Positions 4,734-28,914 of a DNA stretch of 33,764 nt are shown one piece after another; the first letter of the stretch is position 1; every line of letters starts with the position of its first letter. The stretch is from Nitriliruptorales bacterium (GTDB lineage Bacteria; Actinomycetota; Nitriliruptoria; Euzebyales; Egibacteraceae). The stretch covers positions 1 through 33,764 of the forward strand of contig SLAO01000059.1 in NCBI GenBank assembly GCA_007126835.1. The letters are read 5' to 3'. The translations under genes and the position numbers were made by a program. The notes under the pieces are model-generated. The model was not told where the DNA came from and made no database searches. It saw nothing but the letters and a program-made list of their open reading frames with translations.

Positions 4734-4803
4734 CGCCAGGCGCCTCGGCCCGACCGTGTCCAACCGCATCGGCGGCTACCGGGCGTGCGCGTATCGGCAC
4801 CTG

Positions 4804-6246: not shown

Positions 6247-6264
6247 CAGGCCCCGCCGACGGCG

Positions 6265-6726
6265 TCATCCCGTGGCCGAACCGCCGAGGTGGCGTTCTTC
6301 CACCGCGTTCATCTTCTCGACCTTTGGTGCGGAGCCTCCACCCTGGAACTCCGACTCCAGCCAGTGCTCCAGCACCAGCTCCGCAGCCTGCGGAGCGATC
6401 ACCCTGGCGCCCATCGTCAGGACCTGCGCGTCGTTTGACTTGCGGGCCCGCTCCGCCGAGTAGGCGTCGTGGGCCGTGGCCGCGCGCACGCCTGGCACCT
6501 TGTTGGCGGTGATCGCCATGCCGAGTCCGGTGCCGCAGACCAGCAATGCTCGATCGGTCTCCCCGCGCGCCACGCCTTCAGCAACCTTCTCGGCCACGTC
6601 GGGGTAGTCCTCACCCTCGCCGTTGCCGTAGTCCTTGACCTCGTGGCCGTGCTCGCGCAGGTACGTGACGAGGTGCTCCTTTAGTGGGGCGCCGGCATCG
6701 TCGGCGCCGACAGAGATGATCGCCAT
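6265..6726 (-). CDS. rpiB: Ribose-5-phosphate isomerase B / sugar-phosphate isomerase (RpiB/LacA/LacB family)
   Basis: 'MAIISVGADDAGAPLKEHLVTYL...ALLVCGTGLGMAITANKVPGVRAATAHDAYSAERARKSNDAQVLTMGARV' matches RpiB across the whole length, including the catalytic CGTG. A GAAGGAG RBS precedes the start. Confidence 0.9.
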   Translation of the reverse strand: MAIISVGADDAGAPLKEHLVTYLREHGHEVKDYGNGEGEDYPDVAEKVAEGVARGETDRALLVCGTGLGMAITANKVPGVRAATAHDAYSAERARKSNDAQVLTMGARVIAPQAAELVLEHWLESEFQGGGSAPKVEKMNAVEERHLGGSATG

Positions 6727-6760
6727 GGCAAGCTCCTTCGCGGGTTTCTCGTTTGCCGGT

Positions 6761-6799
6761 GGCGGCCGGCCCTGGCCTCACGGGGCGCAGCCGGCCGCC
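6761..6799 (-). other. Intercistronic GC hairpin between the FGGY kinase and rpiB
   Basis: Perfect 10-bp arms GGCGGCCGGC (6761-6770) and GCCGGCCGCC (6790-6799) separated by a 19-nt loop. It lies inside the 87-nt gap between the kinase stop and the rpiB start. Confidence 0.35.
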
Positions 6800-6813
6800 G
6801 TCGTTTCACGCTG

Positions 6814-8388
6814 TCAGCCGACGTGGTCCTCGCCGACGCGACGCACCACGCTGTGCACCAGGTCGCGCAGGGCGGGCCAGGTGTCGACGTAGTGGTCGAT
6901 GTAGAACTTGTATGTCTTGGTTCGCTGGGGATCGGGCTGGAACGTCTCGGTCTCGTGCACCATCGCCGCGGCGGCTTCCTCGACGCTGGGGAACACCCCC
7001 GCGCCGGCAGCGGCCAGGATCGCCGAGCCAAGCACCGCTGCGTCCCCGACCTTGGTCAGGGTCACGGGCACGCCTGTGACGTCGGCGTGCATCTGCGTCC
7101 ACACCCGGCTGTTGGTGGCGCCGCCAGCCGCGACGAACTGCTCGACGTCGAAGCCGGCGTCGGACATCGCCCGCAGCGTGTGAGCCACTCCGTAGCAGAC
7201 TCCTTCCTGGATCGCCCGGTAGACGTGCGCAGGGGAGTGGTGGAGGCTGAAGCCCCACATCACCCCACGGGCCTCCTGGTCGGTGTAGGGCGTGCGGTTG
7301 CCCTGCCAGTAGTCGAGCACGATCAGGCCCTCGGAGCCCGGGGGTATCTCGTCGGCCCGCTGGTTCATGATGTGATAGGGATCGACGCCCTCGGCCTCCG
7401 CCTCGGCGATGACGTCCTTCAAGAAGTTGTCCTTGAACCACTTCAGGACTGACCCGGTCGATACACCGCCACCCTCGACGGTGTGCTGGCCCGGCATCAC
7501 CGCCGACGGGTACGCGCCGAAGAACCCGCGCCCGCTCACCGACGCCGGGCTCTGGCCCGACAGCACGTGCGACGACCCGGTGATCAACGCCATCTTGCCG
7601 GGCTGGACGACGTTCAACCCGATCTGGGCGTGCCAGGCGTCGCCACCACCCTGCGCCACCGGCGTGTTGGGGGCCAACCCCAACTCCTCGGCGACGTCGG
7701 GCAGCAGACCGCCGACGTGCTCTCCGAGGTTCAAGACGTCGTCGGGCAGCTTCTCGAGCACGTCGCCGAGCCCGATCTCCTCGTAGAAGCTCGTCGGCCA
7801 CCCGCCGGTGTCGGCGTTGTAGTAGGCCCGCGTGCTGTTGGAGTTGATGTTGGCCGTCCAGCGGCCGGTCAGCCGGTACGTGATCCAGTCCGCACAGTCG
7901 ACTAGCCGGTGCGCGGCCTGGTAGACCTCGGGCTCCCGCTCCTTGAGCCACAGCGCCTTACAGGGGTACCACTCGGCGTTGACCGGCCCGCCGCCGTTGT
8001 AGGCCCGCGCAGGGTGGTCGGACTCGCCGATGCGCCGAGCCTGGTCGGTCGCGCGGACGTCCATCCACATGATCGCCGGTCGCAAGTGCTGGCCGTTTCC
8101 GTCGACGGCGACAAGCGTCAACGTGGTGGCGTCGTAGGAGATCCCAGCGATGTCTTGCGGGCTGACGCCGGTGCGCTGCATCGCGCCCCGAACCGACGAG
8201 ACGAGACCGTTCCACCAATCTGCAGGGTCTTGCTCCGCCCAGCCTGGATGTGGGTGGGTCAGTGGGTAGGGGGTGGCCTCGAAACCCAACGGTTGACCCT
8301 CGAGGTCGAACACGCCGACGCGCACGCTCTCGGTGCCCATGTCGATCCCGAGGACGTACGGTCCGCTGCTCTGTGCTGCGTCGGTCAT
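6814..8388 (-). CDS. FGGY-family carbohydrate kinase, pentulose (ribulokinase-like) type
   Basis: 'YVLGIDMGTESVRVGVFDLEGQP', 'GWAEQDPADWW' and the C-terminal 'VAAGGATNSRVWTQMHADVTGVPV' are FGGY N- and C-domain signatures. The size of about 524 aa fits pentulose kinases. I chose ATG 8388 because of the GGGAG RBS; the track start at 8412 has none. Confidence 0.85.
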   Translation of the reverse strand: MTDAAQSSGPYVLGIDMGTESVRVGVFDLEGQPLGFEATPYPLTHPHPGWAEQDPADWWNGLVSSVRGAMQRTGVSPQDIAGISYDATTLTLVAVDGNGQHLRPAIMWMDVRATDQARRIGESDHPARAYNGGGPVNAEWYPCKALWLKEREPEVYQAAHRLVDCADWITYRLTGRWTANINSNSTRAYYNADTGGWPTSFYEEIGLGDVLEKLPDDVLNLGEHVGGLLPDVAEELGLAPNTPVAQGGGDAWHAQIGLNVVQPGKMALITGSSHVLSGQSPASVSGRGFFGAYPSAVMPGQHTVEGGGVSTGSVLKWFKDNFLKDVIAEAEAEGVDPYHIMNQRADEIPPGSEGLIVLDYWQGNRTPYTDQEARGVMWGFSLHHSPAHVYRAIQEGVCYGVAHTLRAMSDAGFDVEQFVAAGGATNSRVWTQMHADVTGVPVTLTKVGDAAVLGSAILAAAGAGVFPSVEEAAAAMVHETETFQPDPQRTKTYKFYIDHYVDTWPALRDLVHSVVRRVGEDHVG

Positions 8389-8458
8389 GGTTGCGCTCCC
8401 TTGTTGCATCATCCCGTAGGTTTCGCGGCGGCGCGGCGCGCCTACCGCGTGGAACTGA

Positions 8459-9358
8459 TCATCCGTCGTGCCCGTCGTCCTCCTCCCATCCGAGGTACTC
8501 CCAAAGCCGGGGCGGCAGCAGACGATCCACGCGCTCGAGGACGAAGTCCGGTGCTTGCGCTGCAGGCAGCCCGTGCAGCTCGTCTCGCTGGGTGTCGCCG
8601 GTCAGCACCAGCGCGCTGGCAGCACCGGCTTCCCGCGCCAGCCGGATGTCCGTGCTGAGCCGGTCACCGACCATCACCGCGCGGGCGGGGTCAACCGTCA
8701 GCCCCGCCAGAGCGGTGTGCAAGATCGCCGGGTCGGGCTTGCCGACGTTGACCTCGCAGGTGGCGCCGGTGCAGGCTTCGATCGCCGCGACGACGGCGGC
8801 GCAGTCTGGTTCCCCGCGCCCTCCCGGCATCGGGCAGTACCGGTCGGGGTTGGTCGCCACGAGCCGCGCTCGCCTGTGGAACCACAAGGCGTCGAAGGCG
8901 ATCTGGAGCTTGCGGTACTCGAAGCCGCGGTCGTAGCTGGCGACGACGATGTCGATCTCGCTGGGGTCTTCGGACATGCGAATGCCGGCTTGCTCGAACG
9001 CCCGGATCAGCGGACCTTCGGCGATGGGGAACACCACCGCGTCGGGCGCGTTGTCGAGCAACCACCGGGTCATGACCACCACGGTGTTGACGATGTCGTC
9101 AACCGGTGTCGGCAGCCCCAGGGCCTCGAGCTTGTCCGCGTACTGCTGCGGGTCCTTCGTGGGATTGTTGGACAGGAACCGGACCGGGCGGTCCAGATCA
9201 CGCAACGCCGTGATCAGGCGGCCTGCCCCAGGCAGGAGGGCCTCACCGAGGTAGATCGTCCCGTCGAGGTCGAAGACGTAGGCGTCGTAGAGCTCGTCGG
9301 GGACCCGGCCCGCCGCCGGCCCCCGTCGGGGAGCCTGGCTCATCTGCGGGCTCGGCAT
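8459..9358 (-). CDS. HAD-IIA (NagD-like) sugar-phosphate phosphatase
   Basis: 'YVFDLDGTIYLGEALLPGAGRLI...RFLSNNPTK' gives HAD motifs I and II, and 'VGDRLSTDI' gives motif IV. ATG 9358 is preceded by GGAGGAACG. I trimmed the track ORF that starts at 9448. Confidence 0.85.
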   Translation of the reverse strand: MPSPQMSQAPRRGPAAGRVPDELYDAYVFDLDGTIYLGEALLPGAGRLITALRDLDRPVRFLSNNPTKDPQQYADKLEALGLPTPVDDIVNTVVVMTRWLLDNAPDAVVFPIAEGPLIRAFEQAGIRMSEDPSEIDIVVASYDRGFEYRKLQIAFDALWFHRRARLVATNPDRYCPMPGGRGEPDCAAVVAAIEACTGATCEVNVGKPDPAILHTALAGLTVDPARAVMVGDRLSTDIRLAREAGAASALVLTGDTQRDELHGLPAAQAPDFVLERVDRLLPPRLWEYLGWEEDDGHDG

Positions 9359-9780
9359 CGTTCCTCCGTTGGCCGGAGATCGTGCGGGCCGTCGGCCGTC
9401 CAGCTGGCGCCCGGGACGAGGCTCTTCCTGCGCGCGACCAGGCTCCACCGAGGCAACCCTGCTCGCGCCGACGGTCGCGTCCGTGACGGTACGACCTCCG
9501 CCCGGCAGTTGGCAATCGTCGCCATGGTCGCCCCTTACCCTCGAAGCCTGGAGCCTGTGCGCTGGCCGAACGTGCGTCCCAATCGTGCGCCGGCGCCGGT
9601 GCCGGTGTCGGCCCCGGAGAGCGTTGCCGCGGCAGCCGCCCTGCGCCAGGTCCTAAATCCCACGGTGGCCGGTGAGGCTCGGGGCCGCCGGGGGCCCGGG
9701 TTGTGCTCGCTTTCGACGACGGGTGCGCAAGGCCGGGAAGCCAGACCTGCCGTCGGAAGATCGGTCCGACTTCTGTTCAC

Positions 9781-9855
9781 TATCCGGTGGTTAGAACTAT
9801 CGTGTGTGTTACTCTACACATGAAATGTGTCGTTTACAACAGTCAAACGAACACG
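9781..9855. promoter_or_regulatory. AT-rich island with nested inverted repeats (candidate promoter/operator array or small-RNA element)
   Basis: GC content drops sharply here. It contains TGTGT-N6-ACACA (9804-9820), the 15-bp palindrome ACACAT-GAA-ATGTGT (9816-9830), and TCGTTT-N9-AAACGA (9830-9850). On the minus strand TTGTAA-17nt-TAGAGT reads as a possible -35/-10 pair pointing toward the HAD operon. Confidence 0.35.
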
Positions 9856-10016
9856 ATGCCGGGCACGGTGCCTGTGAGTGCGCACCACGGCCTGCCGACG
9901 GTCGACGCGCCACGGCGCGCGGAGACCGGATGACCACCGGCGCCGCCTGCGATGCGGTCCGCGCTAGCTCCCATGAGGTCCGAAGCGCGGTCCGGGGCAA
10001 CGGCTGCGGTCCCGCC

Positions 10017-10835
10017 TCAGGCGTCGGAGGCTGGCGCAACCTCCACCGCGACGCCGAGTTGGCGCAGCTCCTCGAGGTGCTCGGGTGCGATGCCCGAATC
10101 GACGATGACGAGGTCGAACTCCGTCACGGAGGCGAGATGATGGACCGCTCGCTTGCCGAACTTCGCGTGATCGGCCAGCAGGATCTTGCGGGCCGCCGCC
10201 TGCATGAGCGCCAGCTTGACCTCGATCGTCTCCTGGGAGCGGTGGTAGCAGCTTCCGGCGGTGATCGCGGTGGTCGACGCGAACAGCAGGTCGGCGGTCA
10301 TCGAGCCGACCGACTCGGCGGTGCGCAAGCCCAAGAACGCGTCGTACGCAGGGCGGTACGCGCCCCCCAGGGCGATCAGATCGATGCCGGGCTTGCGGCT
10401 GAGCAGCTGAAGGGAGGGCAGGAAGTTGGTGATGACCGTGACCGGTCGCCGGTTCGGCAGCAACTGGGCCAGCCCGTAGCCGGTCGTGCTCTCGTCGAGC
10501 ATGATCGTGTGGCCGCGCTCGACGTGGCCGAGGGCGTGCGCGGCGATCTCCCCCTTGGCGGCCGCCATGGCCTGCATCCGGTGGCGCACGTCGCCGTGGT
10601 AGAAGGCCGACGGCTCGGCAGTCGCGCCACCTCTGACCTTGCGGACCCAGCCCTGCTCCTCGAGCAGCTCGAGATCTCGACGGATGGTCATCCCGCTGAC
10701 CGCGAACGCGTCGGCGAGCTCGCCAACGGACACGAACCCGTGGGTCAGGATGCGCTCGCGGATCGCCTCTTGCCGGTCCTGCGGGCTCAGTTCGGACTCG
10801 GCTTCGGCGGGAATCTCGTCGGGCGTGCCTTCCAT
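10017..10835 (-). CDS. DeoR-family transcriptional regulator (HTH plus sugar-phosphate-binding DeoRC domain)
   Basis: 'RQEAIRERILTHGFVSVGELADAFAVSGMTIRRDLELLEEQGWVRKVRGGA' is the DeoR HTH. The C-terminal 'ADLLFASTTAITAG...KILLADHAKFGKRA' is the DeoRC effector domain. The start is ATG 10835; the track ORF extends to 11234 with no coding signal. Confidence 0.9.
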   Translation of the reverse strand: MEGTPDEIPAEAESELSPQDRQEAIRERILTHGFVSVGELADAFAVSGMTIRRDLELLEEQGWVRKVRGGATAEPSAFYHGDVRHRMQAMAAAKGEIAAHALGHVERGHTIMLDESTTGYGLAQLLPNRRPVTVITNFLPSLQLLSRKPGIDLIALGGAYRPAYDAFLGLRTAESVGSMTADLLFASTTAITAGSCYHRSQETIEVKLALMQAAARKILLADHAKFGKRAVHHLASVTEFDLVIVDSGIAPEHLEELRQLGVAVEVAPASDA

Positions 10836-13220: not shown

Positions 13221-14348
13221 ATGACCGACCGACTCGCCGAGCTTTCCGCCCAGGGCGTAGCCGTGTGGGTGGATTCGATCGCCCGCGACTGGATCGAGCA
13301 CGGCCACCTGGCACGCTTGCGTGACGAGCGGTCAGTGGTCGGCGTGACGTCGAACCCGACGATCTTCGAGCAGGCGATGCGCCAGGGAGACCGCTACGAC
13401 GCGTCGTTGACCGAGCTAGCCCAGCAAGGCCTTGACGCACGGACCATCTTCGAGCGGCTCGCGCTGGAAGACATCCGCGCAGCAGCGGACGTGCTGCATG
13501 GCGTCTACGACGCGACCGACGGCCACGACGGCTACATCTCCTACGAGGTCGCGCCCGACCTGGCACACGACAGCGATGCCACGGCAGCGGAGGCCACGCG
13601 GCTGTTCGCTGCGCTGGACCGCCCGAACGTGATGATCAAGATCCCGGCGACGCTCGAGGGCCTGCCGGCGATCCGCGAGGCGATCGGGGCGGGCGTCAAC
13701 GTCAATGTCACGCTGATCTTCTCGATCGCGCGCTACCGTGCCGTCGTGGACTCGTACCTCTCGGGGCTCGAGGATCGCTTGGCCGCCGGCGGTGATATCT
13801 CCGGCATCCACAGCGTCGCGTCGTTCTTCGTCAGCCGGGTCGATGGGCTCGTCGACCCGCGGTTGGCCAAGGTCGTCGACGAGGGCGGGCCCGGTGCGGA
13901 CCTCGCCGCGGCCCGGCTCGGGACCGCCGCGATCGACAACGCCAAGCTGGCCTACGAGGCCGGAAGTGAGCTGTTCGCCGGCGACCGCTGGCAGGCGCTG
14001 ACGGCCCGCGGCGCCAATGCTCAGCGTTGCCTGTGGGCCTCCACGTCGACGAAGAACCCCGAGTACCGGGACGTGGTCTACTGCGAGGAGCTCATCGGTC
14101 GCGGGACGGTCAACACCATGCCCCTGGCGACCATCGACGCGTTCGCCGACCACGGCGAGGTTCGCGGGCAGACGGTGGCGGAGAACATCGACCGCGCTCA
14201 CCGCCTGTGGCCCGAGCTCGCTGAGCTCGGCCTCGACGAAGACGCCGTCGGCGAGGAGCTCGAAGAGGACGGCGTCCGCAAGTTCGCCGCCAGCTTCGAG
14301 GCACTGCTCGAGACCATCGAGGATCAGCGCCGCCGCGCGCTCGGTTAG
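13221..14348 (+). CDS. tal: Transaldolase (actinobacterial long type)
   Basis: 'VWVDSIARD', 'GVTSNPTIFEQA', 'YISYEVAPDL', the Schiff-base lysine in 'VMIKIPATLEGLPA', 'NVNVTLIFS' and 'FFVSRVD'. An AGGAGG RBS lies at 13211. Confidence 0.95.
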   Translation: MTDRLAELSAQGVAVWVDSIARDWIEHGHLARLRDERSVVGVTSNPTIFEQAMRQGDRYDASLTELAQQGLDARTIFERLALEDIRAAADVLHGVYDATDGHDGYISYEVAPDLAHDSDATAAEATRLFAALDRPNVMIKIPATLEGLPAIREAIGAGVNVNVTLIFSIARYRAVVDSYLSGLEDRLAAGGDISGIHSVASFFVSRVDGLVDPRLAKVVDEGGPGADLAAARLGTAAIDNAKLAYEAGSELFAGDRWQALTARGANAQRCLWASTSTKNPEYRDVVYCEELIGRGTVNTMPLATIDAFADHGEVRGQTVAENIDRAHRLWPELAELGLDEDAVGEELEEDGVRKFAASFEALLETIEDQRRRALG

Positions 14349-14645
14349 CCTTGGCTTAGCTTCGAGCTAGCCCTCGAACGTCCCTGTGCGCGCCGGCGAC
14401 TGACGCTCCGGTGCCGGCGGCTCGTTGCGCCGTGGGACCCCCGACCTTTCAGGTGGGGACGAAGCGCACTGTGCCGGCTGCGTGTCCCGATCTACGGTAA
14501 CGCCACTACATGATGCCGCTGTCTCGGAGGCACGCCATGCCGGCGTTCGCAAAGCACTGCGTTGCACGTCCCGGTGGCCATGGCAGCGGCGTCGCAGGTC
14601 AGTCGATGTCGCCTCGCATTTCATGAGGCGTAGTCAGGGGCTAGC

Positions 14646-16031
14646 GTGACGCAATCTGGTCTGTCAGAGCAGGGCAACGGCGCTCAAGGCGGTCCCGGCC
14701 AGATGCCCGGCGACGTCGCCGAGCCGTCGGGCGGCTCGATGGTGCTGCCGCCGGTCGAACGGGGTGACGAGGCCTACGTCAGCCGGATCCCTGAGGGGAT
14801 GCTGGTCCGCGCGACCAGCGCAACCGGGGGCGCCTCTGGTGTGGGCGTGACGCCGCGGTTCAAGCAGGTCATCGACGAGTTCTCCGAGGCTGTCAGTGCC
14901 GGGGGCACGCCCGCGGGCTTTCGCATCGAATCGGCTGTCGATGGCGACGGCGCGGTCCGTTTCGACCTGGTGCGCGACATCTCACGCGACCGCAACGGCC
15001 AGCGGCGCCCCACGCCGCTGCTGTTCTCGGTGGACTCGGCCAACCCCTACGAGGTGGCGCCGTGTGCAGGCCTGGTCGCGAACCTCACCTGCAACCCGGG
15101 CATCGTCTACGACTTGTTCCTCAACAACCCCGAGGCCAACGTCGGCAACCGCTTTTCCACGCTCGAGGAGGTGATCGCCGAGCTTGGCCGTGTGCTCGGG
15201 CCGGGCTGCGACATGAGCGTGGAGCTGAACAACCCGTTCGCTGACTTCGGGCAGATCCTCGAGGACATCCACCGCTACGAAGAAATCGTCTCGTCGCACA
15301 GGCTGGTCGTCAAGGTGCCCCACACCGGACCGGTCAACGCCGACAACGTCTCGCAGTTGCTCACCGGCGACAAGCGCCTCGATCGTCGCTACGACCAGGG
15401 CAGCACGCAGGACTACCTGCACGGCCACAACCTTGCGTTGCGGCTGCACGAGCACGGCTACCGGGTCAACTTCACGCTGATGTTCGAGCCCCACCAGGTG
15501 CCGCTGGCGCTGCAGGCCAGGCCGTACTTCATCAACGCGTTCTTGCGGCACCGTCGAGCTGCCACGCGCACGCTGCAAGGGCTCGTCGCGGCATACGAGA
15601 CCACCCACGAGCGCGGGTTCCTCACCCAGCTGCGGGAGTACATGCTCAAGCAGGACTTCCTGTCGGCCCACGACACCGAGGCGGATCTGCTGTCGGTGCT
15701 CGAGAAGGCTCGCACCTACCTCTACAACCGCCGAGCCGACGGGGAGGGCGCCGACGGACTCGATTCCGCACGTCAGGCCCTGCGGTGGCTGCGCACCGCC
15801 CACCTGCCCGACACCCGCCTGATCATCTGCAGCATGGAAGGTCCCACCTGGTACCCAGACGTCACCGCCATGCTCACCGAGCCCGAGTTCGCCGACATGC
15901 ATGACCGGGTGGTCATCACCACCGAGCCCAACTACCTCGCACGGTGGTCCAGCGCCCCCCAAGTCGTCAGCTACCAACGCCGGTTCATGAACGCCGCACA
16001 AGCCGCCAACGAAGCCGCTGAAGCCACCTGA
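14646..16031 (+). CDS. Divergent transaldolase/FSA-fold (class I aldolase) protein with N-terminal extension and internal insertion; function unknown
   Basis: It aligns by eye with the neighbouring Tal and with FSA. 'LLFSVDSANPYEV' corresponds to VWVDS (Asp). 'ANLTCNPGIVYD' corresponds to TSNP (Asn). 'MSVELNNP' corresponds to SYEV (Glu). 'LVVKVPHTG' corresponds to IKIPAT (Schiff-base Lys). 'VNFTLMFE' corresponds to VNVTLIFS. 'NAFLRHRR' corresponds to FFVSRVD. GC3 is high. The start is uncertain (GTG 14646 or an internal ATG). Confidence 0.6.
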   Translation: MTQSGLSEQGNGAQGGPGQMPGDVAEPSGGSMVLPPVERGDEAYVSRIPEGMLVRATSATGGASGVGVTPRFKQVIDEFSEAVSAGGTPAGFRIESAVDGDGAVRFDLVRDISRDRNGQRRPTPLLFSVDSANPYEVAPCAGLVANLTCNPGIVYDLFLNNPEANVGNRFSTLEEVIAELGRVLGPGCDMSVELNNPFADFGQILEDIHRYEEIVSSHRLVVKVPHTGPVNADNVSQLLTGDKRLDRRYDQGSTQDYLHGHNLALRLHEHGYRVNFTLMFEPHQVPLALQARPYFINAFLRHRRAATRTLQGLVAAYETTHERGFLTQLREYMLKQDFLSAHDTEADLLSVLEKARTYLYNRRADGEGADGLDSARQALRWLRTAHLPDTRLIICSMEGPTWYPDVTAMLTEPEFADMHDRVVITTEPNYLARWSSAPQVVSYQRRFMNAAQAANEAAEAT

Positions 16032-16083
16032 GCGACGGGTCGACATTCAGTCGCGCCATCTCGAACCGAGGAAAGGATCCGCA

Positions 16084-16803
16084 ATGGTCGACCTCGCGAC
16101 TGTGACCAGTTGGGAGCTCGGAAAGTGCTTTGACCAGTCGGTGCTGCCGAAGAACACCACCGAGGAGGACATCCGGGAGGGAGCACGCCTCGCGGTGAAG
16201 TACAACTGCGCGGCGTTTTACAGCTCGTCGCCGTATTGGACTTCGGTCGTGCTCGAAGAGCTCGAGGGCACTGACGTTCTGCCAGCCGCCGCGATTGCGT
16301 TCCCCTTCGGCTCGGCGACATCGCTGGTGAAGGTCAAAGAAGCTGAGGAGGCCGCCAGTCTGGGCTGCCGAGCTTTGGACATGGTGATGAACATCGGTGC
16401 ATTGAAGAGCGGACGCAGCGATGACGTGCGCCGCGAGTGCCGGGAGTTCCGAGACGCGGCCGGCGACGCGCTCACGAAAGTGATCCTGGAGACTTGCTTC
16501 CTCACCGACGACGAGATCCGTCGCGGCTCGGAGATCGTGGCCGAGGAAGGCATCGACTACGTCAAGACGTCATCCGGGCAGTTCGAGGGTCCCAGCATGG
16601 AGCACGTCCTGATCATGCTGGACGCTGTCTCCGAGACCCCGACCAAGGTCAAGGTGGCGGGTGTGAAGTTCCCCCGACCCCAGAACGCCTACGCCTTCCT
16701 GCTTGCGGGCGTCGACCTGATCGGCACGCGCGACGCACCGACGATCATCGATGCACTAGACCAGATGCGGCAGATCGGGCTCGTCCCGGCCTACCGCGGC
16801 TGA
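16084..16803 (+). CDS. DeoC/DERA-family class I aldolase, paralog 1
   Basis: 'FDQSVLPKNTTEEDI', 'AFPFGSAT', 'LDMVMNIGALKSG', 'TKVILETCFLTDDEI', 'DYVKTSSGQ' (Schiff-base Lys) and 'KVKVAG' follow the DERA motif order. A GGAAAGGA RBS precedes the start. Confidence 0.8.
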   Translation: MVDLATVTSWELGKCFDQSVLPKNTTEEDIREGARLAVKYNCAAFYSSSPYWTSVVLEELEGTDVLPAAAIAFPFGSATSLVKVKEAEEAASLGCRALDMVMNIGALKSGRSDDVRRECREFRDAAGDALTKVILETCFLTDDEIRRGSEIVAEEGIDYVKTSSGQFEGPSMEHVLIMLDAVSETPTKVKVAGVKFPRPQNAYAFLLAGVDLIGTRDAPTIIDALDQMRQIGLVPAYRG

Positions 16804-16814
16804 GGAGGCAGAGC

Positions 16815-17504
16815 ATGCTGACCGTGGCCGAGTACGCCAAACATCTCGACATGGCCGTGCACCTCCAGAAGCTGGGCGAGGCCGACATCCGCCAGTACGC
16901 GCGGCAGGCGCGAGAGGCCAACGTCGCGGCCTTCTACACCAACCCGTTCTGGAACGCGGTGGTGGCCGAGGAGCTCGCGGGGTCCGACGTGCGGGTGGGG
17001 GCCGGGATCGCGTTTCCCTACGGTGCCACCACGACCGGCGTCAAGTTCGCCGAGATCTCCGACGCCCTGGAGAACGGCGCGACCGCGGTGGACATGGTCG
17101 TCAACATCGGGGCGCTCAAGGACGGCAACTACGTCCTGATCGACAAGGAGCTCGCCGGGCTGCGGGACCGTTGCGCCGGCACCGCGCTGACCAAGCTGAT
17201 CTTCGAGGTCGCGTTCTTGACCGACGAGGAGATCGTCACCCTGACCCGGATGTGCTGTGACGCCGGCTTGGACTACGTGAAGACCTCGACGGGCACTGAG
17301 GGCTTCCCGACCGAGCACCACGTCAAGCTCATGCGCGACAGCATCACCAATGACCGGACCAAGCTGAAGGTGTCCGGGGTGCCCCGCCAGTTCACGCTCG
17401 CCGCAACCTTGTGGATGCTCGACATGGGCGTGGACCTGATGGGCACCCGCAGCGCCGCCAACCTCGTGGCCGAATACGCCGCGCACCTCGCCGAGAAGTC
17501 CTAG
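16815..17504 (+). CDS. DeoC/DERA-family class I aldolase, paralog 2
   Basis: 'AFPYGATT', 'VDMVVNIGALKDG', 'TKLIFEVAFLTDEEI', 'DYVKTSTGT' and 'KLKVSG'. A GAGGAGG RBS precedes ATG 16815. The gene starts 11 nt after paralog 1 ends. I trimmed the track ORF starting at 16437. Confidence 0.8.
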   Translation: MLTVAEYAKHLDMAVHLQKLGEADIRQYARQAREANVAAFYTNPFWNAVVAEELAGSDVRVGAGIAFPYGATTTGVKFAEISDALENGATAVDMVVNIGALKDGNYVLIDKELAGLRDRCAGTALTKLIFEVAFLTDEEIVTLTRMCCDAGLDYVKTSTGTEGFPTEHHVKLMRDSITNDRTKLKVSGVPRQFTLAATLWMLDMGVDLMGTRSAANLVAEYAAHLAEKS

Positions 17505-17520
17505 CCGGAAGGAACCGAAC

Positions 17521-19038
17521 ATGTCGCAGTACCTGGTAGGCATCGACGCCGGGACCACTGGCTGCAAGACGTGCATCTTCGATGTCGAAGGCACCGTCAT
17601 CGCATCCGACTACCGTGAGTACCCCTCGTACTACCCGAAGCCTGGCTGGGTCGAGCAGCTGTCGGAAGACCTCGTGCCGCCGCTGTTCGACTCGTGCAAG
17701 GCCGCGGTCGAGCGCTCCGGCGTGGACCCCGCAGAGATCGTCGCGCTGGCCATCTCGACACAGGGCTCGATCATCGGCCTGCTCGATGAGCGAGGCGAGA
17801 CCATCCGACCTTGGATCGGCTGGCAAGACCTACGGGGCGAGCCGTACCTCGAGGAGATCAAGAAGCTCATCCCGCAGGACCGGTACTACCAGATCACCGG
17901 CGACCCGCTCGGGGCGATCTTCTCGATCAGCAAGCTGGCCTGGCTCAAGGACAACGAGCCCGAAAACTGGGCGCGTGCCGAGCTGTTCTCCACCGAGCAG
18001 GACTTCCTCCTGCGCCAGTGGGGAGCCGACGAGTACTGGACGGACCTGTCCTCGGCTTCGCGCGAGGGCATGTTGGACATCGACAACTTCGTGTGGTCCA
18101 AGGAGATCCACGACCTGATGGGCATCCCCTTGGAGAAGCGGGCGAAGATTTCGACCGAGCCCGGCCAGGTGGTCGGGCGCCTGTCGAAGGAGGTCGCCGA
18201 GCGCAGCGGCCTGGCCGAGGGCACCCTGCTGTGCGTGGGCGCGCACGACCAGAACTGCTCGACGTTCGGGGCCGGTGCGGTTCGCGGCGGCGACACGGTC
18301 ATGGTCATCGGCACGTTCGGCTCGTGCTTCGTCGTCATGGACGAATCCAAGCGGGACCCCAACGCCAAGCTCGTCGTCAAGCCCAACCACGGCTTGGACA
18401 ACTGGACGATCGAGGCGTTCTCGGTCACGTCGGCATCGGCGTTCCGCTGGTACCGGGACACGTTCGCGGACCTGGAGGTCGCCGCCTCCAAGCAGCTGCG
18501 CGAGGACCCCTACGACCTGATCACCCGAGCCATCGCGGGCGTGCCTCCCGGCTCGGACGGCATCACGTTCCTGCCCTTCCTGCAGGGCGCGTCGGGTGCG
18601 CGCCTCAACGCCAACGCCCGCGGCACGTTCGTGGGGATGAGCCTGGGCACGTCGAAGGCCGCGATGGCCCGCGCGGTGCTTGAGGGAATCTCCTTCGAGA
18701 TGAAGGACATCCTGCTCGCCCAAGCCGCCGCCGGGATCGACATCGGCGCCATCCGTCTGACCGGCGGAGCGGCGAAGTCGCCGATGTGGTGCCAGATGCT
18801 CGCCGACATCTTCCAGCGACCCATCGAGCTGCTGCAGACCTCCGAAACCGGCGCCCTCGGTGCGGCCCTGTACGCCGGGGTTGGGGCAGGCATCTACGCC
18901 GACTGCACCGAGGCGGCCGATCGCGCGGTGAAGATCAGCAAGCGCTACGAGCCCGACCCCACCGTCGTGGACCAGTACGAGGAGGCCTTCGACCGCTTCG
19001 TCCGCGTCTACGAAGCACTCGACGGCCGGATCTTCTAG
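17521..19038 (+). CDS. FGGY-family carbohydrate kinase (xylulokinase-like)
   Basis: 'YLVGIDAGTTGCKTCIFDVEG', 'GWVEQLSEDL', 'LCVGAHDQNCSTFGAG' and 'RLTGGAAKSPMWCQMLADIFQRPI'. A GGAAGGAA RBS precedes the start, which is 16 nt after the preceding gene. Confidence 0.9.
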   Translation: MSQYLVGIDAGTTGCKTCIFDVEGTVIASDYREYPSYYPKPGWVEQLSEDLVPPLFDSCKAAVERSGVDPAEIVALAISTQGSIIGLLDERGETIRPWIGWQDLRGEPYLEEIKKLIPQDRYYQITGDPLGAIFSISKLAWLKDNEPENWARAELFSTEQDFLLRQWGADEYWTDLSSASREGMLDIDNFVWSKEIHDLMGIPLEKRAKISTEPGQVVGRLSKEVAERSGLAEGTLLCVGAHDQNCSTFGAGAVRGGDTVMVIGTFGSCFVVMDESKRDPNAKLVVKPNHGLDNWTIEAFSVTSASAFRWYRDTFADLEVAASKQLREDPYDLITRAIAGVPPGSDGITFLPFLQGASGARLNANARGTFVGMSLGTSKAAMARAVLEGISFEMKDILLAQAAAGIDIGAIRLTGGAAKSPMWCQMLADIFQRPIELLQTSETGALGAALYAGVGAGIYADCTEAADRAVKISKRYEPDPTVVDQYEEAFDRFVRVYEALDGRIF

Positions 19039-19146
19039 CGAGGGCCGCAGCGGTCGTCGGCAACGTCGCGGCCTCCGTGGATCGGGTGGATGAGCCCATC
19101 CACGGGGGCCGCGGAACGTGGCGTACGCGGCGCGGGCATTGGGCGA

Positions 19147-20040
19147 TCACGCGCTGGCTTCGCGAGGGTGGAGCAAGGCGCGGACCTGCGCGATCGTGGC
19201 GGTGGCCTTGGCCCCCGCGCGCCGAGCTGCGTCGTCGAGCCCCGAGAAGTCCAGCACCCGCACATCCGGACCAAGGTCCGGGCGCAGCGCCAGGTCCGCG
19301 TCCGACAAGCGCTCCTCGACGAACGCGCGCTGCCCCAGCTCCACTCCTCGCAGCAGCCCGCTGACCGGCCCTTCGGGCTCCTCGGCGAGCAGGCCCGGCC
19401 CGACCGGGACCGCCGCCACGACGACGTCGGCGCCCAGATCCCGAGCCACGTCCACTGGGGCCGGGTCGCTGAACGCTCCGTCCACCAGGAGCTGATCGCC
19501 GCGCCTGACCGGACGGGTCACGCCCGGCAAGGCAGACGAAGCCAGCGTCGCTTCGCTGACCAGCCCGCGGTCGAGCACCGCCCGGCTTCCGGCCGTCAGG
19601 TCGGTGGCGACCAGGGCGAGCGGGATGCGGGTGGCGTCGAACGTCAGTGACGCCCCCACCAGCTCGTCCAGCGAGCGGCGTCCCAGGGATTCGTAGCCCT
19701 GACGGCCCCACGTCCACACCGAAGGTGCCAGTTGGCGGGCGCTGCGCAGCGCGCCTCGCAGCCGGGCGAACGTCTCGTCGTCCGCGACGCCGGCGGTGGC
19801 CGGCAGGCGACTGCGGTCCACCGCCTGCAGGGCATCGGACCAGTCGGTGCGTGCCCCGTACGCCGCCGCCACGATCGCCGCGGTCGACACTCCGACGAGC
19901 ACGTCGGGCGAGAGCCCGGCGCGTTCGTACACCCCCAGCACCCCGGCGGCTGACAGGCCCCGTACGCCTGTGCCGCCGAGGACGAGGCCCAGCTTCAGCC
20001 GTTCGCCGTCCACACCCTCCATGGTGCCCACCTCGACCAT
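19147..20040 (-). CDS. Patatin-like phospholipase
   Basis: 'LGLVLGGTGVRGLSAAGVL' is the oxyanion-hole Gly-rich/Arg motif. 'LVGVSTAAIVAAAYG' is a GxSxA variant of GxSxG. 'LLVDGAFSDPAPVD' carries the catalytic Asp (DGA). The start is ATG 20040 or ATG 20022; the track ORF up to 20715 is an over-extension. Confidence 0.75.
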   Translation of the reverse strand: MVEVGTMEGVDGERLKLGLVLGGTGVRGLSAAGVLGVYERAGLSPDVLVGVSTAAIVAAAYGARTDWSDALQAVDRSRLPATAGVADDETFARLRGALRSARQLAPSVWTWGRQGYESLGRRSLDELVGASLTFDATRIPLALVATDLTAGSRAVLDRGLVSEATLASSALPGVTRPVRRGDQLLVDGAFSDPAPVDVARDLGADVVVAAVPVGPGLLAEEPEGPVSGLLRGVELGQRAFVEERLSDADLALRPDLGPDVRVLDFSGLDDAARRAGAKATATIAQVRALLHPREASA

Positions 20041-20161
20041 GACGATCGAGCGGTGCGCGTGGCCGGCGCATTCTCGTCGTCCGATTCTGCCCGGAACCGG
20101 GCCGTGTCCCGCGGGCGAACTACACTGTGGCCGCATCCCCGGCCCCGACCGTGAGGTCCCG

Positions 20162-21181
20162 GTGAACCAACCCCCGCAGCATCCCGGTTTCCGACGGCTG
20201 GCCACGGTGACCGCGGCGTTGACCCTGGGGCTCATCGCCCTGGGAGGCGCCGTCCGCGCCACCGACTCCGGCCTGGCCTGCCCCACGTGGCCTGGATGCT
20301 TCACCGCCGGGGACTTCATCCCGCCCGCGGACTTGAACGTCTGGCTGGAGCACTCCCACCGCCTCGTCGCCATCGTGGTTGGCTTGCTGGTCGCATGGTT
20401 GACCCTGTGGGTCCTGATGCGCTTCCGCCACCGCCGGGACCTGCTGTGGCCGACGCTGGCGGCGGCCGTGTCGGTCAACGTCCAGGCCGTGCTCGGGGCG
20501 TTCGTGGTGTGGCGCTGGCTCGAGGCCTGGCTGGTCACCGCGCACCTGACGTTGGCGATGCTGATCCTGGCGACGATGCTGGCCATCGCGGTCAACGCGT
20601 CGCATCCCCGGCCGACCCGGGCGGTCAGCCGGAAGCTCGACCTGCGCTTGGGACGCTGGTCGGCAGGCGTGGCGACGTTCGCCCTGGTGCAGATCGCGGT
20701 GGGGGGACAGGTCACCGGCGTGGGAGCCGGTCTTGCCTACCGTCTCCAGGGCTTTCCGCTGATGGACGGCGCGGTGTTCCCAGCCGTGACCGAGGCGACG
20801 AGCCGGCAGCTGTACCACGCAAGCCACCGCATGCTGGGGTTCGCGCTGCTGCTTGCCGTCGCATGGCTGTGGTGGCGCGCGGCCCGCGAGCGCTCTGCCC
20901 GACAGCAGGCCGGCAGCTGGAGCGAACGGCACGACTGGCTCGTTTGGCTGCCAGCCCTCGCCACCGGCTTGGTCGTCTTGCAGATCGGCATCGGGGTGAC
21001 CAACATCGCCTCGGACTTGTCCTGGCTGTCGGTCATCCCGCACCTGGCCGTGGCCAGTTGGATCTACACCGCGTTGTTCCTGCACACGATGCTGGCCTAC
21101 CGCTGGGCGGACCCTGTTGAGGCTCGAACCACAGGCCGGCCCGAGGCGACCGCAGACACCGCAGCGCAGGCCCGCCCGTGA
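20162..21181 (+). CDS. ctaA: Heme A synthase (COX15/CtaA family)
   Basis: 'LGLIALGGAVRATDSGLACPTWPGCF' and 'LEHSHRLVA' (His ligands), with a second half carrying 'YHASHRMLGF' and 'VIPHLAVASW'. The protein is polytopic. GTG 20162 has a GAGG RBS. I trimmed the track ORF starting at 19796. Confidence 0.85.
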   Translation: MNQPPQHPGFRRLATVTAALTLGLIALGGAVRATDSGLACPTWPGCFTAGDFIPPADLNVWLEHSHRLVAIVVGLLVAWLTLWVLMRFRHRRDLLWPTLAAAVSVNVQAVLGAFVVWRWLEAWLVTAHLTLAMLILATMLAIAVNASHPRPTRAVSRKLDLRLGRWSAGVATFALVQIAVGGQVTGVGAGLAYRLQGFPLMDGAVFPAVTEATSRQLYHASHRMLGFALLLAVAWLWWRAARERSARQQAGSWSERHDWLVWLPALATGLVVLQIGIGVTNIASDLSWLSVIPHLAVASWIYTALFLHTMLAYRWADPVEARTTGRPEATADTAAQARP

Positions 21182-22615: not shown

Positions 22616-25249
<2,634 letters not shown>

Positions 25250-25275
25250 GGATGCTCCTCTCGGATGCGGGTGCG

Positions 25276-26409
25276 TTAGGAAAGCGGAGGCAGGAACGGG
25301 ACGACGTCATCCGTGCGCCATCCCAGCTCTCCGTCGACGGCGATCACCCCGTCGACGGCAGCCACCGCCATATGAATGGTGGAAACATGGCTGCGGGCCT
25401 GTGCATGGCCTGCAATCTCGACGATACCCCACTGGACGCGGGCAGTGACCTCCGGCTCGTCGAGTTCGGTCAGCACCTCGGTCACGGCGGCTTCGATGAC
25501 AGCGTCGGCCCGGATGAGGGCTCGCAGGACATCGTGTCGCGTGACGATGCCGACGATCCTACTTCCGTCGACCACGACGAGCCGGGCCACCCGTTCGTCG
25601 AGCATGACGCGCACGGCGGCGCGGAGCGCGGCGCCGGGCACGGTGACGAGCGCCGGGCGGCTGCAGGCCTCGCCGACGCTCCTGGCGCGAGCACGCAGGT
25701 CGTGTAACTCGGTCTCGCGGTGCAGCCCTCGCGGCGGCTCGGCCTCCTTGGCCAACAGATCGGCCTCGGAGATGACCCCGACCAGCGACCCGTCGCCGGC
25801 GATCACGGGGGCCCCGCCGATGCCGTGATGGAACAGCAGCAAAGCAGCGGTGCGCAGCGGCAGCTCCTCGTCGACCACGAGCGGGTCGGCGGTCATCACG
25901 TCGGCCACCGTCAGGGTCGAGGGACGCTCTTCCCGCTTGGGCGGCTCGGCCGGTCCGGTGGGCAGCCGCTCGGCGAGGCGCTCGACGAGTTCCTCCGCGG
26001 TGGCTTGCGCGAGCACGCGGAGCGCCCCGCCGTCGGCGAGGACGCCCACGGGGCCGAACGGGGGGCGGTACCGGCCCGTCAGGGTCACCTGGGCGCGGTT
26101 GCTCGATAGCGGTTCGAGCTCGACGGCACCGTCGAAGCGCGGGAAGGCCAACCGGCCGGGCTCGGCCTCCCACGTCAACGGGATGGACAGGCGCCTGCCC
26201 CGGCGACCTGCAACCCCGGCATGGACCCGGACCTGCTTGGCGGTGTCGAACCCGGCAACCTCGGCATGCAGTCGGGCCAGGAACGACCCGTCAACGTCCG
26301 GTGTAGCCTCGGGCTCGGCCAGGAGCGCGGTCAGCCCGACGCACAGGCGTTCCTCGAGCGCGGTGACGTCACCTGCGACGTGCCGGTACGCGTACAGCCA
26401 GCGTTCCAT
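25276..26409 (-). CDS. Three-part fusion: unknown N-terminal domain (paralog of 28915-29433), CBS pair and BON-like C-terminus
   Basis: The CBS pair reads 'VADVMTADPLVVDEELPLRTAALLLFHHGIGGAPVIAGDGSLVGVISEADLL' and 'LVTVPGAALRAAVRVMLDERVARLVVVDGSRIVGIVTRHDVLRAL'. The C-terminal 'VTARVQWGIVEIAGHAQARSHVSTIHMAVAAVDGVIAVDGEL' looks like a BON domain. ATG 26409 has a GGAGG RBS. I trimmed the track ORF that extends to 26565. Confidence 0.7.
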   Translation of the reverse strand: MERWLYAYRHVAGDVTALEERLCVGLTALLAEPEATPDVDGSFLARLHAEVAGFDTAKQVRVHAGVAGRRGRRLSIPLTWEAEPGRLAFPRFDGAVELEPLSSNRAQVTLTGRYRPPFGPVGVLADGGALRVLAQATAEELVERLAERLPTGPAEPPKREERPSTLTVADVMTADPLVVDEELPLRTAALLLFHHGIGGAPVIAGDGSLVGVISEADLLAKEAEPPRGLHRETELHDLRARARSVGEACSRPALVTVPGAALRAAVRVMLDERVARLVVVDGSRIVGIVTRHDVLRALIRADAVIEAAVTEVLTELDEPEVTARVQWGIVEIAGHAQARSHVSTIHMAVAAVDGVIAVDGELGWRTDDVVPFLPPLS

Positions 26410-26420
26410 GGTGGCCTCCG

Positions 26421-26441
26421 TGTCCGGGGGCGGCCCGGACA
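26421..26441. promoter_or_regulatory. Perfect 8-bp inverted repeat abutting the RBS of the CBS-BON gene
   Basis: TGTCCGGG-GGCGG-CCCGGACA (26421-26441). It lies 12 nt upstream of ATG 26409 on the minus strand, next to the GGAGG RBS. Confidence 0.3.
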
Positions 26442-26534
26442 GCAACGACGGTACGTCACAGCATCTCCTGCGAGGCGGGATGACAGCAGGGCCGTCGGCC
26501 TGTGCCGCCGAGGTCCTCATGGTCCTCCGCGATC

Positions 26535-26549
26535 GGGGACGATTGCCCC
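26535..26549. promoter_or_regulatory. DosR/DevR-box-like palindrome in the divergent intergenic region
   Basis: GGGGACGATTGCCCC. The 14-nt core GGGACGATTGCCCC matches 11/14 positions of the mycobacterial DosR core GGGACTWWAGTCCC. It lies about 95 bp upstream of the CBS gene ATG at 26637. Confidence 0.3.
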
Positions 26550-26636
26550 TGCCAAGGTGGCACATCCGGGGCAGACTCCGGGTGAGAGCGGTCCCGCCCG
26601 CGGGCAGCTCCAGATCCCGACGCGGGAGGAGGCGCC

Positions 26637-27065
26637 ATGCTGGTCCGCAACTGGATGAGTCCAGACCCCGTCACCGTCACACCGTCGACTGAGGTTGCCG
26701 AGGCTCGGCGCCTGATGCGCTACTACGGTGTCCGTCACCTCCCCGTCGTGGGCGACGACGGCTTCGTCGTCGGCATGATCAGCGACCGCGACGTCCGGAT
26801 CGACGATGCCGAGGTGCGCCGCCTGGCGGCCATGGGGCGCGTCGGCGAGGCGACCGGGGAGGGTCAGCTCGTCGAGGCGGTCATGAGCTCACCGGTGCAC
26901 ACCGTGGGCGTGGACGAGCCGGTCGAGGCCGCGGCGCGCCAGATGCTGTCCCGGCGCGTGTCCGCGCTGCCGGTGGTCGACGGTGAGCGGCAGATGCAGG
27001 GTGTGATCACCACCACCGACTGCCTCTTGGCCTCCCTGTCACCCGAACCGGTGGGCGAGGGGTAG
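26637..27065 (+). CDS. Stand-alone CBS-pair protein (Hrp1/Rv2626c-like)
   Basis: The two CBS motifs are 'VRNWMSPDPVTVTPSTEVAEARRLMRYYGVRHLPVVGDDGFVVGMISDRDV' and 'VMSSPVHTVGVDEPVEAAARQMLSRRVSALPVVDGERQMQGVITTTD'. A GGGAGGAGG RBS precedes the start. Confidence 0.85.
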   Translation: MLVRNWMSPDPVTVTPSTEVAEARRLMRYYGVRHLPVVGDDGFVVGMISDRDVRIDDAEVRRLAAMGRVGEATGEGQLVEAVMSSPVHTVGVDEPVEAAARQMLSRRVSALPVVDGERQMQGVITTTDCLLASLSPEPVGEG

Positions 27066-27099
27066 CTGAGCGAACGCGGGGCTGGTTGCGGCCGCGGGG

Positions 27100-27750: not shown

Positions 27751-27775
27751 GCTTGCTCCTATCGGTCCTCGCTGC

Positions 27776-28891: not shown

Positions 28892-28914
28892 GCTGGGCAG
28901 ACTAGCGGGTCCTG

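Follow-up and report, generated by a model that had tools for sequence, protein, structure and literature searches.

Introduction

In deo-type catabolism of deoxyribose and deoxynucleosides, the gene for deoxyribose-phosphate aldolase (DERA), deoC, occurs with deoK or with deoB and deoD/udp. Here we compare this and other described systems with a locus in a 33,764-nucleotide (nt) stretch of DNA (the window; GC content ~70%) from a Nitriliruptorales bacterium (contig SLAO01000059.1). An earlier reading of the sequence (the original prediction) had singled out four open reading frames (ORFs) downstream of tkt and tal as a sugar-phosphate module: one for a divergent transaldolase-like (TAL-like) protein, two for DERA-like aldolases and one for an FGGY-family sugar kinase. 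We read the region, tentatively and with somewhat less than even confidence, as a composite sugar-phosphate operon of two pieces, a resident TAL-like gene and an inserted deoC-deoC-FGGY cassette, that would serve as a route of 2-deoxy-sugar breakdown. As in deo systems, its aldolases belong to the DERA family, pass the TIGR00126 cut-off with the catalytic Lys in place, and adjoin a sugar kinase. Moreover, one of them, here called type B, has orthologues whose operons also encode DeoB, a nucleoside phosphorylase, a Bmp transporter and an iron-containing alcohol dehydrogenase (Fe-ADH). Unlike in deo systems, the kinase is of the FGGY and not the ribokinase family, the aldolases come as two paralogues (up to four elsewhere), their GG and SS phosphate-binding motifs are replaced, and a gene for a TAL-fold protein is attached. 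Neither a nucleoside phosphorylase nor a phosphopentomutase was found among the scanned window genes.

Three further systems invite comparison. Members of the transaldolase/FSA superfamily (TalB, the short Tal of Bacillus and Thermotoga, and FSA) share with the TAL-like protein the TIM barrel, the Lys in VVKVP, the Asp, Asn, Glu and NxT positions and the transferase Phe. The TAL-like protein differs from them in its length of ~440 amino acids (aa), with an extra domain and an insertion, in its ~15% identity to solved Tal, and in standing beside a canonical tal. Sulfo-TAL and transketolase pathways are likewise catabolic clusters around a dihydroxyacetone (DHA)-transferring transaldolase and/or a split transketolase, and alignments of sulfo-TAL enzymes, short transaldolases from Faecalicatena, with the solved transaldolase 8BC4 cover 209 and 140 positions (PMC11659671). 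In agreement with the original prediction, which had set the sulfo-TAL route aside, no families of sulfoquinovose (SQ) isomerase, sulfolactaldehyde (SLA) reductase/dehydrogenase or sulfonate exporter occur among the scanned window genes. Sugar-phosphate utilising (SPU) bacterial microcompartment loci are similar in combining a DERA with an RpiB-family protein and a class II aldolase (PMC11585597). They differ in that the SPU DERA carries an encapsulation extension and that no FGGY kinase or TAL-fold protein has been described for them (PMC11585597); in turn, the annotated genes here showed neither shell proteins nor the aldehyde dehydrogenase/PTAC core.

The four ORFs are genuine genes behind tkt and tal

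The genes of the locus and its edges are the following:

14646..16031, forward strand: ORF1, TAL-like; 461 aa from GTG 14646 or 442 aa from ATG 14703
16084..16803, forward strand: ORF2, DERA-like aldolase of subfamily A; 239 aa
16815..17504, forward strand: ORF3, DERA-like aldolase of subfamily B; 229 aa, inside a longer ORF, 16437-17504
17521..19038, forward strand: ORF4, orphan FGGY-family sugar kinase, nearest to xylulokinase; 505 aa
11084..13144, forward strand: tkt, the upstream partner (Pfam Transketolase_N, Transket_pyr and Transketolase_C_1), syntenic in the related loci L170 and L171
13221..14348, forward strand: tal, canonical transaldolase, 375 aa (Pfam TAL_FSA, 261.9 bits), with homologues named transaldolase
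19152..20027 (approximate, from the gene call in the related locus L172), reverse strand: patatin-like phospholipase gene (Pfam Patatin), at the downstream edge of the insertion

The families named for the four products in the original prediction proved correct, by Pfam and NCBIfam profile matches and, for the TAL fold, by structure comparison. The layout was likewise as described: the four ORFs are co-directional and separated by 52, 11 and 16 nt, and 297 nt lie between the tal stop (14348; the tal start was set by exact match to P0121) and GTG 14646, the first possible ORF1 start. A public gene call of the identical ORF1 protein begins at ATG 14703, which gives a gap of 354 nt after tal. Of the purine-rich ribosome-binding sites proposed for all four ORFs, those of ORF2-ORF4 are evident as Shine-Dalgarno-like purine runs ahead of the starts (GGAAAGGA, GAGGAGG and GGAAGGAA), whereas the run before the ORF1 start at 14646 is weak.

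Because all four ORFs have a strong coding signature, with GC content of 0.83-0.95 at third codon positions (GC3) against 0.42-0.46 at second positions (GC2), and because each has many homologues, they are genuine genes. They are presumably co-transcribed. A GC dip at 15-18 kb was considered as a sign of recent transfer and rejected, since GC3 stays at 0.83-0.95 and first codon positions cause the dip. An Rfam scan over the whole window gave no match.

An insertion beside a resident TAL-like gene

In Corynebacterium glutamicum, tkt-tal-zwf-opcA-devB form one operon (PMC2230225). The window resembles this actinobacterial tkt-tal-zwf-opcA-pgl(devB) arrangement in that tkt-tal come first and cta genes lie nearby; ctaA and ctaB were found downstream of the module, as predicted, at about 20.2-22.1 kb. 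It differs in carrying aldolase and kinase genes after tal, and both the window and L171, a locus from a related Actinomycetota metagenome-assembled genome (MAG), are without zwf, opcA and pgl. Indeed, no scanned window ORF matched G6PD, OpcA or Pgl. The original prediction was right that these genes are absent from the window, but its further claim that the module takes their place is contradicted by synteny with L171.

The canonical Tal orthologue of L171 is 75% identical to that of the window, and the L171 backbone, Dak1-Dak2-TAL-like (opposite strand)-tkt-tal-patatin-ctaB-...-pyruvate phosphate dikinase (PPDK)-CBS-CBS-response regulator-GAF kinase, matches that of the window gene by gene. 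There the patatin gene comes immediately after tal, and zwf, opcA, pgl, DeoC and FGGY genes are all missing. Two closer relatives, from a different sample, repeat the arrangement of the window: L170 (91% nucleotide identity) reads Dak1-Dak2-tkt-tal-TAL-like, and L172 (98.7% identity) reads DeoC-A-DeoC-B-FGGY-patatin-ctaA-ctaB. By this synteny, the TAL-like gene is a resident of this lineage, always found close beside tkt-tal. Because L171 keeps the backbone with neither the cassette nor zwf-opcA-pgl, the DeoC-A-DeoC-B-FGGY triplet is an insertion between the TAL-like gene and the patatin gene and not a replacement; the lineage does not have the oxidative genes here, and tkt-tal-zwf-opcA-devB is not the ancestral arrangement of this site.

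The C. glutamicum operon and the absence of the three genes from the window might suggest that the module stands in functionally for zwf-opcA-pgl, the oxidative pentose-phosphate genes, where actinobacteria usually carry them, but we give this next to no credence. In L171, patatin and ctaB come directly after tal, and the four enzymes provide neither NADPH nor 6-phosphogluconate chemistry. For this window, the comparison sets right a tempting but mistaken reading of the module.

The gene combination recurs as a modular system

DERA-like neighbours of the TAL-like gene form two subfamilies that match ORF2 (A) and ORF3 (B); a third, C, occurs in some loci. TAL-like, DERA-like and FGGY genes stand together in L021 (Clostridiales), L044 (Verrucomicrobiota), L049 (Anaerolineaceae), L064 (Eubacterium) and L074 (Erysipelotrichaceae), with a DERA-like gene of type C in L049 and of type A in the other four. 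A contig of 67.5% GC, L090, carries DeoC-A, DeoC-B and FGGY in the order of the window (69, 56 and 65% identity). It also has a divergent arm, TAL-like-RpiB-Tkt-GntR, as well as genes for a class II aldolase and HAD phosphatases and two more DERA-like copies. Actinomycetaceae have a six-gene cluster, TAL-like (58%)-GntR-DeoC-B (64%)-FGGY (60%)-class II aldolase (FBA)-HAD. Because such trios and clusters recur in all these places, we consider the association of kinase, DERA-like aldolases and TAL-like gene to be real and old, the exact four-gene set being one variant of a modular system. The recurrence expected in the original prediction is thus seen, in Actinomycetaceae, gut Bacillota, Verrucomicrobiota and Chloroflexota. 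The notion of one fixed four-gene unit does not hold: the TAL-like gene belongs to the resident backbone of this lineage, and its commonest partner sets elsewhere are transketolase/RpiB, or DhaKL with FBA and a HAD phosphatase.

Across 83 non-redundant loci, the TAL-like gene has as neighbours the N- and C-terminal parts of a split transketolase (TktN in 32/83, TktC in 30/83), RpiB (29/83), a GntR/UTRA regulator (27/83), a DHDPS-family aldolase (21/83), a class II ketose-bisphosphate aldolase (20/83), a HAD phosphatase (16/83), DhaL and DhaK (15/83 and 13/83), an FGGY kinase (13/83) and a DERA-like aldolase (10/83). The usual cluster in Actinomycetota is FBA-HAD-DhaL-DhaK-TAL-like. Throughout, the gene sits in clusters that handle sugar phosphates or trioses, and its partners vary.

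A large conserved TAL-like cluster is shared by L020, L026, L029, L033, L048, L061 and L087 (Bacillota and one Burkholderiales-labelled MAG), in the order ZnADH-ABC permease-DHDPS-RpiB-TktN-TktC-TAL-like-DHDPS-2-hydroxyacid dehydrogenase-KDG-kinase-like PfkB-Gfo/Idh/MocA (levoglucosan-dehydrogenase-like)-ABC transporter. It is another uncharacterised catabolic setting of the family.

The two aldolase types keep different company. A metagenome scan seeded with type A yielded 35 loci of at least 7 kb, which hold an FGGY kinase in 30/35 cases, mostly immediately downstream, GntR in 22/35, a class II aldolase and a PHP phosphatase in 18/35 each, a split transketolase in 15/35 and the TAL-like gene in 8/35; Fe-ADH family genes recur as well. 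Type A is often found in tandem, with two copies in gut clusters and four in L107. Arrays of 2-4 DERA-like paralogues, 54-63% identical to ORF2, lie just 5' of the FGGY kinase at L107:8001-11001, L120:8001-9504, L064:5967-7542 and L102:7167-9554. This multiplicity could reflect a hetero-oligomer or different stereoisomers.

Type B lies directly upstream of the TAL-like gene in four loci from Lachnospiraceae, Oscillospiraceae and Treponema. In two of the four, L058:9225-11254 and L082:9156-11170, the type-B stop overlaps the first possible TAL-like start, which suggests translational coupling in nucleoside-catabolic operons. All four operons contain a uridine-phosphorylase-like gene, an amidohydrolase, a Bmp nucleoside-binding protein, ABC transporter genes and an Fe-ADH, and three contain a bona fide phosphopentomutase, DeoB (512 bits); a phosphorylase and a phosphopentomutase stand beside type-B orthologues in L067, L082 and L086. 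Judged by gene content, the type-B operons are a nucleoside-catabolic setting, where a working DERA would be expected.

The same counts bear on whether the two pieces of the window locus are functionally linked at all. If they were not, the TAL-like protein would serve the tkt-tal locus as a second isozyme of transaldolase type, and only chance would have set the deoC-deoC-kinase cassette beside its gene. The TAL-like gene occurs without any DERA-like gene in 73/83 loci and in few of the DeoC-A loci, in the relatives L171, L010 and L012 it is paired with DhaK/DhaL, FBA and HAD instead, and a 52-nt gap, across which co-transcription is no more than presumed, parts it from the cassette. Adjacency of TAL-like and DERA-like genes nevertheless recurs independently in at least five phyla, with both subfamilies and in varied gene orders, as would be unlikely for unrelated genes, and in two type-B operons the two genes overlap. 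We therefore hold chance adjacency to be decidedly unlikely.

ORF1 represents an isolated family with a predicted transaldolase fold

Profile matches had been foreseen for all four proteins. Those to DeoC (TIGR00126) and to FGGY_N/FGGY_C were obtained, but ORF1 scored only 21.2 bits against Pfam TAL_FSA (PF00923), under the gathering score of 27 and over residues 200-300 only. It also matched no NCBIfam family at E <= 0.1, and hence no curated transaldolase model. Many ORF1 homologues do have a precomputed PF00923 match. PDB sequence searches with ORF1 and with the family profile gave marginal Tal matches only (E = 0.04-0.2), and fold comparison was therefore used to place the protein. An AlphaFold2 model built with 30 homologues as input (predicted local distance difference test, pLDDT, 88; predicted template-modelling score, pTM, 0.84) found its best Foldseek matches among short transaldolases and FSA (1vpx, 3r8r, 6ys0 and 4rz4; probability 1.00, target TM 0.77-0.83, ~15% identity). 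ORF1 is accordingly modelled with a (β/α)8 transaldolase fold, as the original prediction had proposed for the 461-aa protein. Relative to the ~215-aa enzymes, the model has an additional N-terminal α/β domain (residues ~36-120, ~90 aa) and a helical insertion after strand 6 (residues ~303-385, ~85 aa).

Seven residues, D130, N150, E193, K223, N275, T277 and F299, are invariant in 30 sequences of the family and align with catalytic motifs in the window's Tal and in transaldolases of Bacillus and Thermus. K223, on strand 4 in the motif VVKVPHTG, is the Schiff-base Lys. By this alignment, the family retains a transaldolase-type active site. Both Glu193 and Phe299 are the transferase states, and the Gln/Tyr hallmark of FSA is not seen; in TalB, the single change F178Y yields an aldolase (PMC3962226). 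R301 and R303 are also invariant in the family. Compared at the level of motifs only, CSMEG (window 15833-15847, residues ~396-400) corresponds to the AASIR strand of short transaldolases, and of the two Arg positions that bind phosphate, one seems to hold Glu throughout the family (Asp/Gln in some homologues). This apparent Arg-to-Glu change hints at a non-standard substrate.

The family is widespread and compact. Its homologues fill more than 1700 protein clusters, 55-77% identical, across phyla, and it is present in 398 GTDB species representatives from Actinomycetota, Bacillota, Spirochaetota, Chloroflexota, Verrucomicrobiota, Bacteroidales and others. Although it spans at least eight phyla, all members lie above ~50% identity; the nearest relatives of ORF1 are from a Nitriliruptoraceae MAG (75%) and a Nitriliruptorales MAG (71%), and by these the window would probably belong to the same class. 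An exhaustive profile search of 1.84 billion (1.84e9) 50%-identity representatives recovered one full-length representative plus fragments and did not reach canonical transaldolase. When the family was compared by hhalign with canonical actinobacterial Tal, the probability was 18% and only the Glu, Lys and NxT block aligned. Because there is a sole full-length 50% representative and no canonical transaldolase was reached, the family is an isolated, unusually slowly evolving island in sequence space. Its members bear database names of "transaldolase family protein" or "hypothetical" only, and we found no paper on the family in the open-access literature. The orthologue at L171:5188-6552 has no Pfam match on record, and family members are easily left hypothetical.

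The DhaK/DhaL neighbours and the CSMEG change bring up a different use of these genes, the assimilation of aldehydes and ketols. The TAL-like enzyme would use or release free DHA, as FSA does; a class II aldolase, a phosphatase and the XylB-like kinase would turn dihydroxyacetone phosphate (DHAP) and glycolaldehyde into xylulose-5-phosphate; and the DERA-like enzymes would handle acetaldehyde. Of the 83 loci, 13-15 link DhaK/DhaL to the TAL-like gene (Actinomycetota, Bacillota and Chloroflexota), gut-type clusters have no transporter gene, the best model for the kinase is xylulokinase, and the TalB R181E variant prefers non-phosphorylated acceptors (PMC3962226), which the presumed change of Arg to Glu, Asp or Gln at CSMEG would parallel. 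The scheme, wholly inferential, is nonetheless very improbable, given that Phe299 and Glu193 are transferase states and not the Tyr/Gln of FSA, and that no Dak, class II aldolase or matching phosphatase lies beside the module in the window.

Two DERA-like aldolases and an orphan kinase

ORF2 and ORF3, 44% identical to each other, score 138.8 and 142.9 bits against the TIGR00126 deoC equivalog and pass its cut-off of 117.3. Their matches to solved DERA reach down to E = 2e-32 (ORF2 against 5dbu), and alignment with 5dbu and 8qps places the catalytic Lys (VKTS), the second Lys (KV[SA]G) and the Asp (DMV). Subfamily A is marked by the motif KVKV[SA]GVKFPRPQNAY...GTR and subfamily B by K[VL]SGVP...GTRSA, of which K[VL]SGVP is kept in 91/120 homologues and GTRSA in 114/120. 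ORF2 shares 55-69% identity with its counterparts in Bacillota, Verrucomicrobiota and L090, and ORF3 is 60-70% identical to named deoxyribose-phosphate aldolases of Actinomycetaceae and Propionibacteriales.

ORF4 has Pfam matches to FGGY_N (179.7 bits, E = 1e-52) and FGGY_C (118 bits, E = 6e-34). Its best NCBIfam model, XylB (TIGR01312), gives 313.9 bits, under the cut-off of 380.25; other FGGY equivalogs score it far under their cut-offs, and a PDB search returned no close solved relative. It is 57-65% identical to kinases beside DERA-like genes in L021, L064, L090 and L173. No characterised member of the TAL-like family, of the GTR-type DERA clade or of this FGGY subfamily was found in NCBIfam, the PDB or the open-access literature. 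The original prediction could match the module to no characterised pathway, and we too found no literature on the gene combination or family and no NCBIfam name for ORF1.

A tentative route of 2-deoxy-sugar breakdown

In the route that we tentatively favour, the FGGY kinase would phosphorylate a free 2-deoxy sugar, in the simplest case 2-deoxy-D-ribose or a close relative. Cleavage of the phosphate ester by the DERA-like aldolases would then yield acetaldehyde together with an aldose phosphate, either glyceraldehyde-3-phosphate or another. The TAL-like enzyme would work with the products of the neighbouring tkt and tal to redistribute this carbon among triose, tetrose, pentose, hexose and heptose phosphates; net flux would presumably run in this direction. 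Class II aldolase and phosphatase partners elsewhere could do an equivalent job through a bisphosphate, fructose-1,6-bisphosphate (FBP) or sedoheptulose-1,7-bisphosphate (SBP), and DhaKL partners would fit a TAL-like module serving substrates that enter as trioses.

Of these steps, acetaldehyde release has the most behind it: we infer that the DERA-like enzymes are acetaldehyde-releasing class I aldolases because of their equivalog scores, their catalytic triad, the company of type B with DeoB and the frequent Fe-ADH genes, whose recurrence in DeoC-A loci is consistent with acetaldehyde production. Supply of the substrate by the kinase comes next, and the reshuffling of carbon by the TAL-like protein with tkt and tal last. 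The original prediction had excluded deoxynucleoside catabolism for want of a phosphorylase or mutase. That exclusion falls away: a kinase acting on the free sugar makes both unnecessary, and type B is found elsewhere in nucleoside operons with DeoB.

Several observations weigh against this route. The canonical DERA phosphate-binding motifs are absent in A, B and C, with KxSGG replaced by KV[SA]GV and the C-terminal SS by R[SDA]; because these motifs are lost, the substrate of both aldolases may be other than deoxyribose-5-phosphate (dR5P). We know of no FGGY kinase that acts as a deoxyribokinase, and the known DeoK belongs to the ribokinase family. Simple deoxyribose cleavage explains neither the tandem arrays of 2-4 DERA-like paralogues nor the frequent class II aldolase and PHP/HAD phosphatase partners. 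The link of the TAL-like gene to the cassette could be loose, considering how few DeoC-A loci hold it (8/35) and in how many other contexts it occurs, and with a canonical tal already in the window a plain transaldolase role would be redundant. Finally, a scan of 14200-19400 for promoter and terminator consensus found no sites and does not define the edges of the transcription unit.

Some of these points would be accommodated by the same architecture acting on a different substrate. The kinase and DERA-like aldolases would then process an unusual sugar, such as a longer 2-deoxy-aldose or a C4-C7 ketose or polyol derivative, to erythrose-4-phosphate (E4P) or another non-triose aldose phosphate, from which the TAL-like enzyme, or a class II aldolase and phosphatase via SBP, would make sedoheptulose-7-phosphate (S7P) for transketolase. 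The phosphate site is remodelled in all DERA-like subfamilies, with new conserved Arg and Lys residues. The recurring partners also fit: class II ketose-bisphosphate aldolase with PHP/HAD phosphatase (18/35), split transketolase (15/35), RpiB and the TAL-like gene, the last of which might be an alternative to FBA plus phosphatase on the way from E4P to S7P. Dehydrogenases of the Fe-ADH_2 family resembling glycerol-1-phosphate dehydrogenase (G1PDH) adjoin the kinase in some loci, and a neighbouring deoR-HAD-FGGY-rpiB-G1PDH-like operon of the window includes an RpiB that scores 161 bits against the D-erythrulose-4-P isomerase model. On the other hand, that score is under the DerI cut-off of 240, no abundant natural substrate of the kind is evident, type B occurs in ordinary nucleoside operons with DeoB, a supplier of pentose-5-phosphates, and both aldolases score above the DERA equivalog cut-off. 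We consider a different substrate unlikely, and retain the breakdown of a 2-deoxy sugar as the tentative assignment.

The neighbouring operon spans 4861-10790 on the reverse strand, divergent from tkt, and may lead from a polyol or tetrose to E4P:

~10017-10790, reverse strand: DeoR-family regulator
8459-9448, reverse strand: HAD-IIA phosphatase
6814-8412, reverse strand: second FGGY kinase, ribulokinase/xylulokinase-like
6265-6777, reverse strand: RpiB, sub-cut-off against the D-erythrulose-4-P isomerase model
4861-6264, reverse strand: G1PDH-like Fe-ADH_2 protein, 467 aa

L170 and L171 have Dak1-Dak2 where the window has this operon. Orthology of its G1PDH-like gene (4861-6264) with the one beside the L107 kinase was considered and rejected at 24% identity.

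Elsewhere in the window, two long opposite-strand ORFs overlap at 19147-21181, with Pfam matches to Patatin and COX15-CtaA; the actual genes, by the L172 calls, are divergent and much shorter, with patatin at ~19152-20027 (reverse strand) and ctaA at ~20162-21181 (forward strand). A conserved block at 22616-28933, syntenic with L171 and L172, encodes PPDK, two CBS-domain proteins, a LuxR-type response regulator and a GAF histidine kinase. At 2000-4800, high-GC3 ORFs on both strands (e.g. 2706-3578 and 3741-4088) have no Pfam match.

Significance

Every component of the locus comes from a known superfamily, and most of the interest lies in the TAL-like family and not in this window. A bolder proposal is possible, though we hold it doubtful: that the TAL-like family is a new class of transaldolase-superfamily enzymes whose donor or acceptor is non-canonical (free DHA, or a non-phosphorylated or deoxy sugar) and that, together with GTR-type DERA-like A/B/C proteins and the orphan FGGY kinase, it forms an undescribed, widespread catabolic route. 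Its carriers would be human-associated Actinomycetaceae, gut Bacillota, termite-gut spirochaetes and soda-lake-type Actinomycetota, and the window would hold an unusually compact version. The family, which lacks both a curated name and a structure, is consistently wired to transketolase, DHA kinase, and class II and DERA-like aldolases. Were its reaction known, a real gap in the picture of sugar-phosphate metabolism would close, gut and oral bacteria included, and the role of the arrays of GTR-type DERA paralogues would become clearer.

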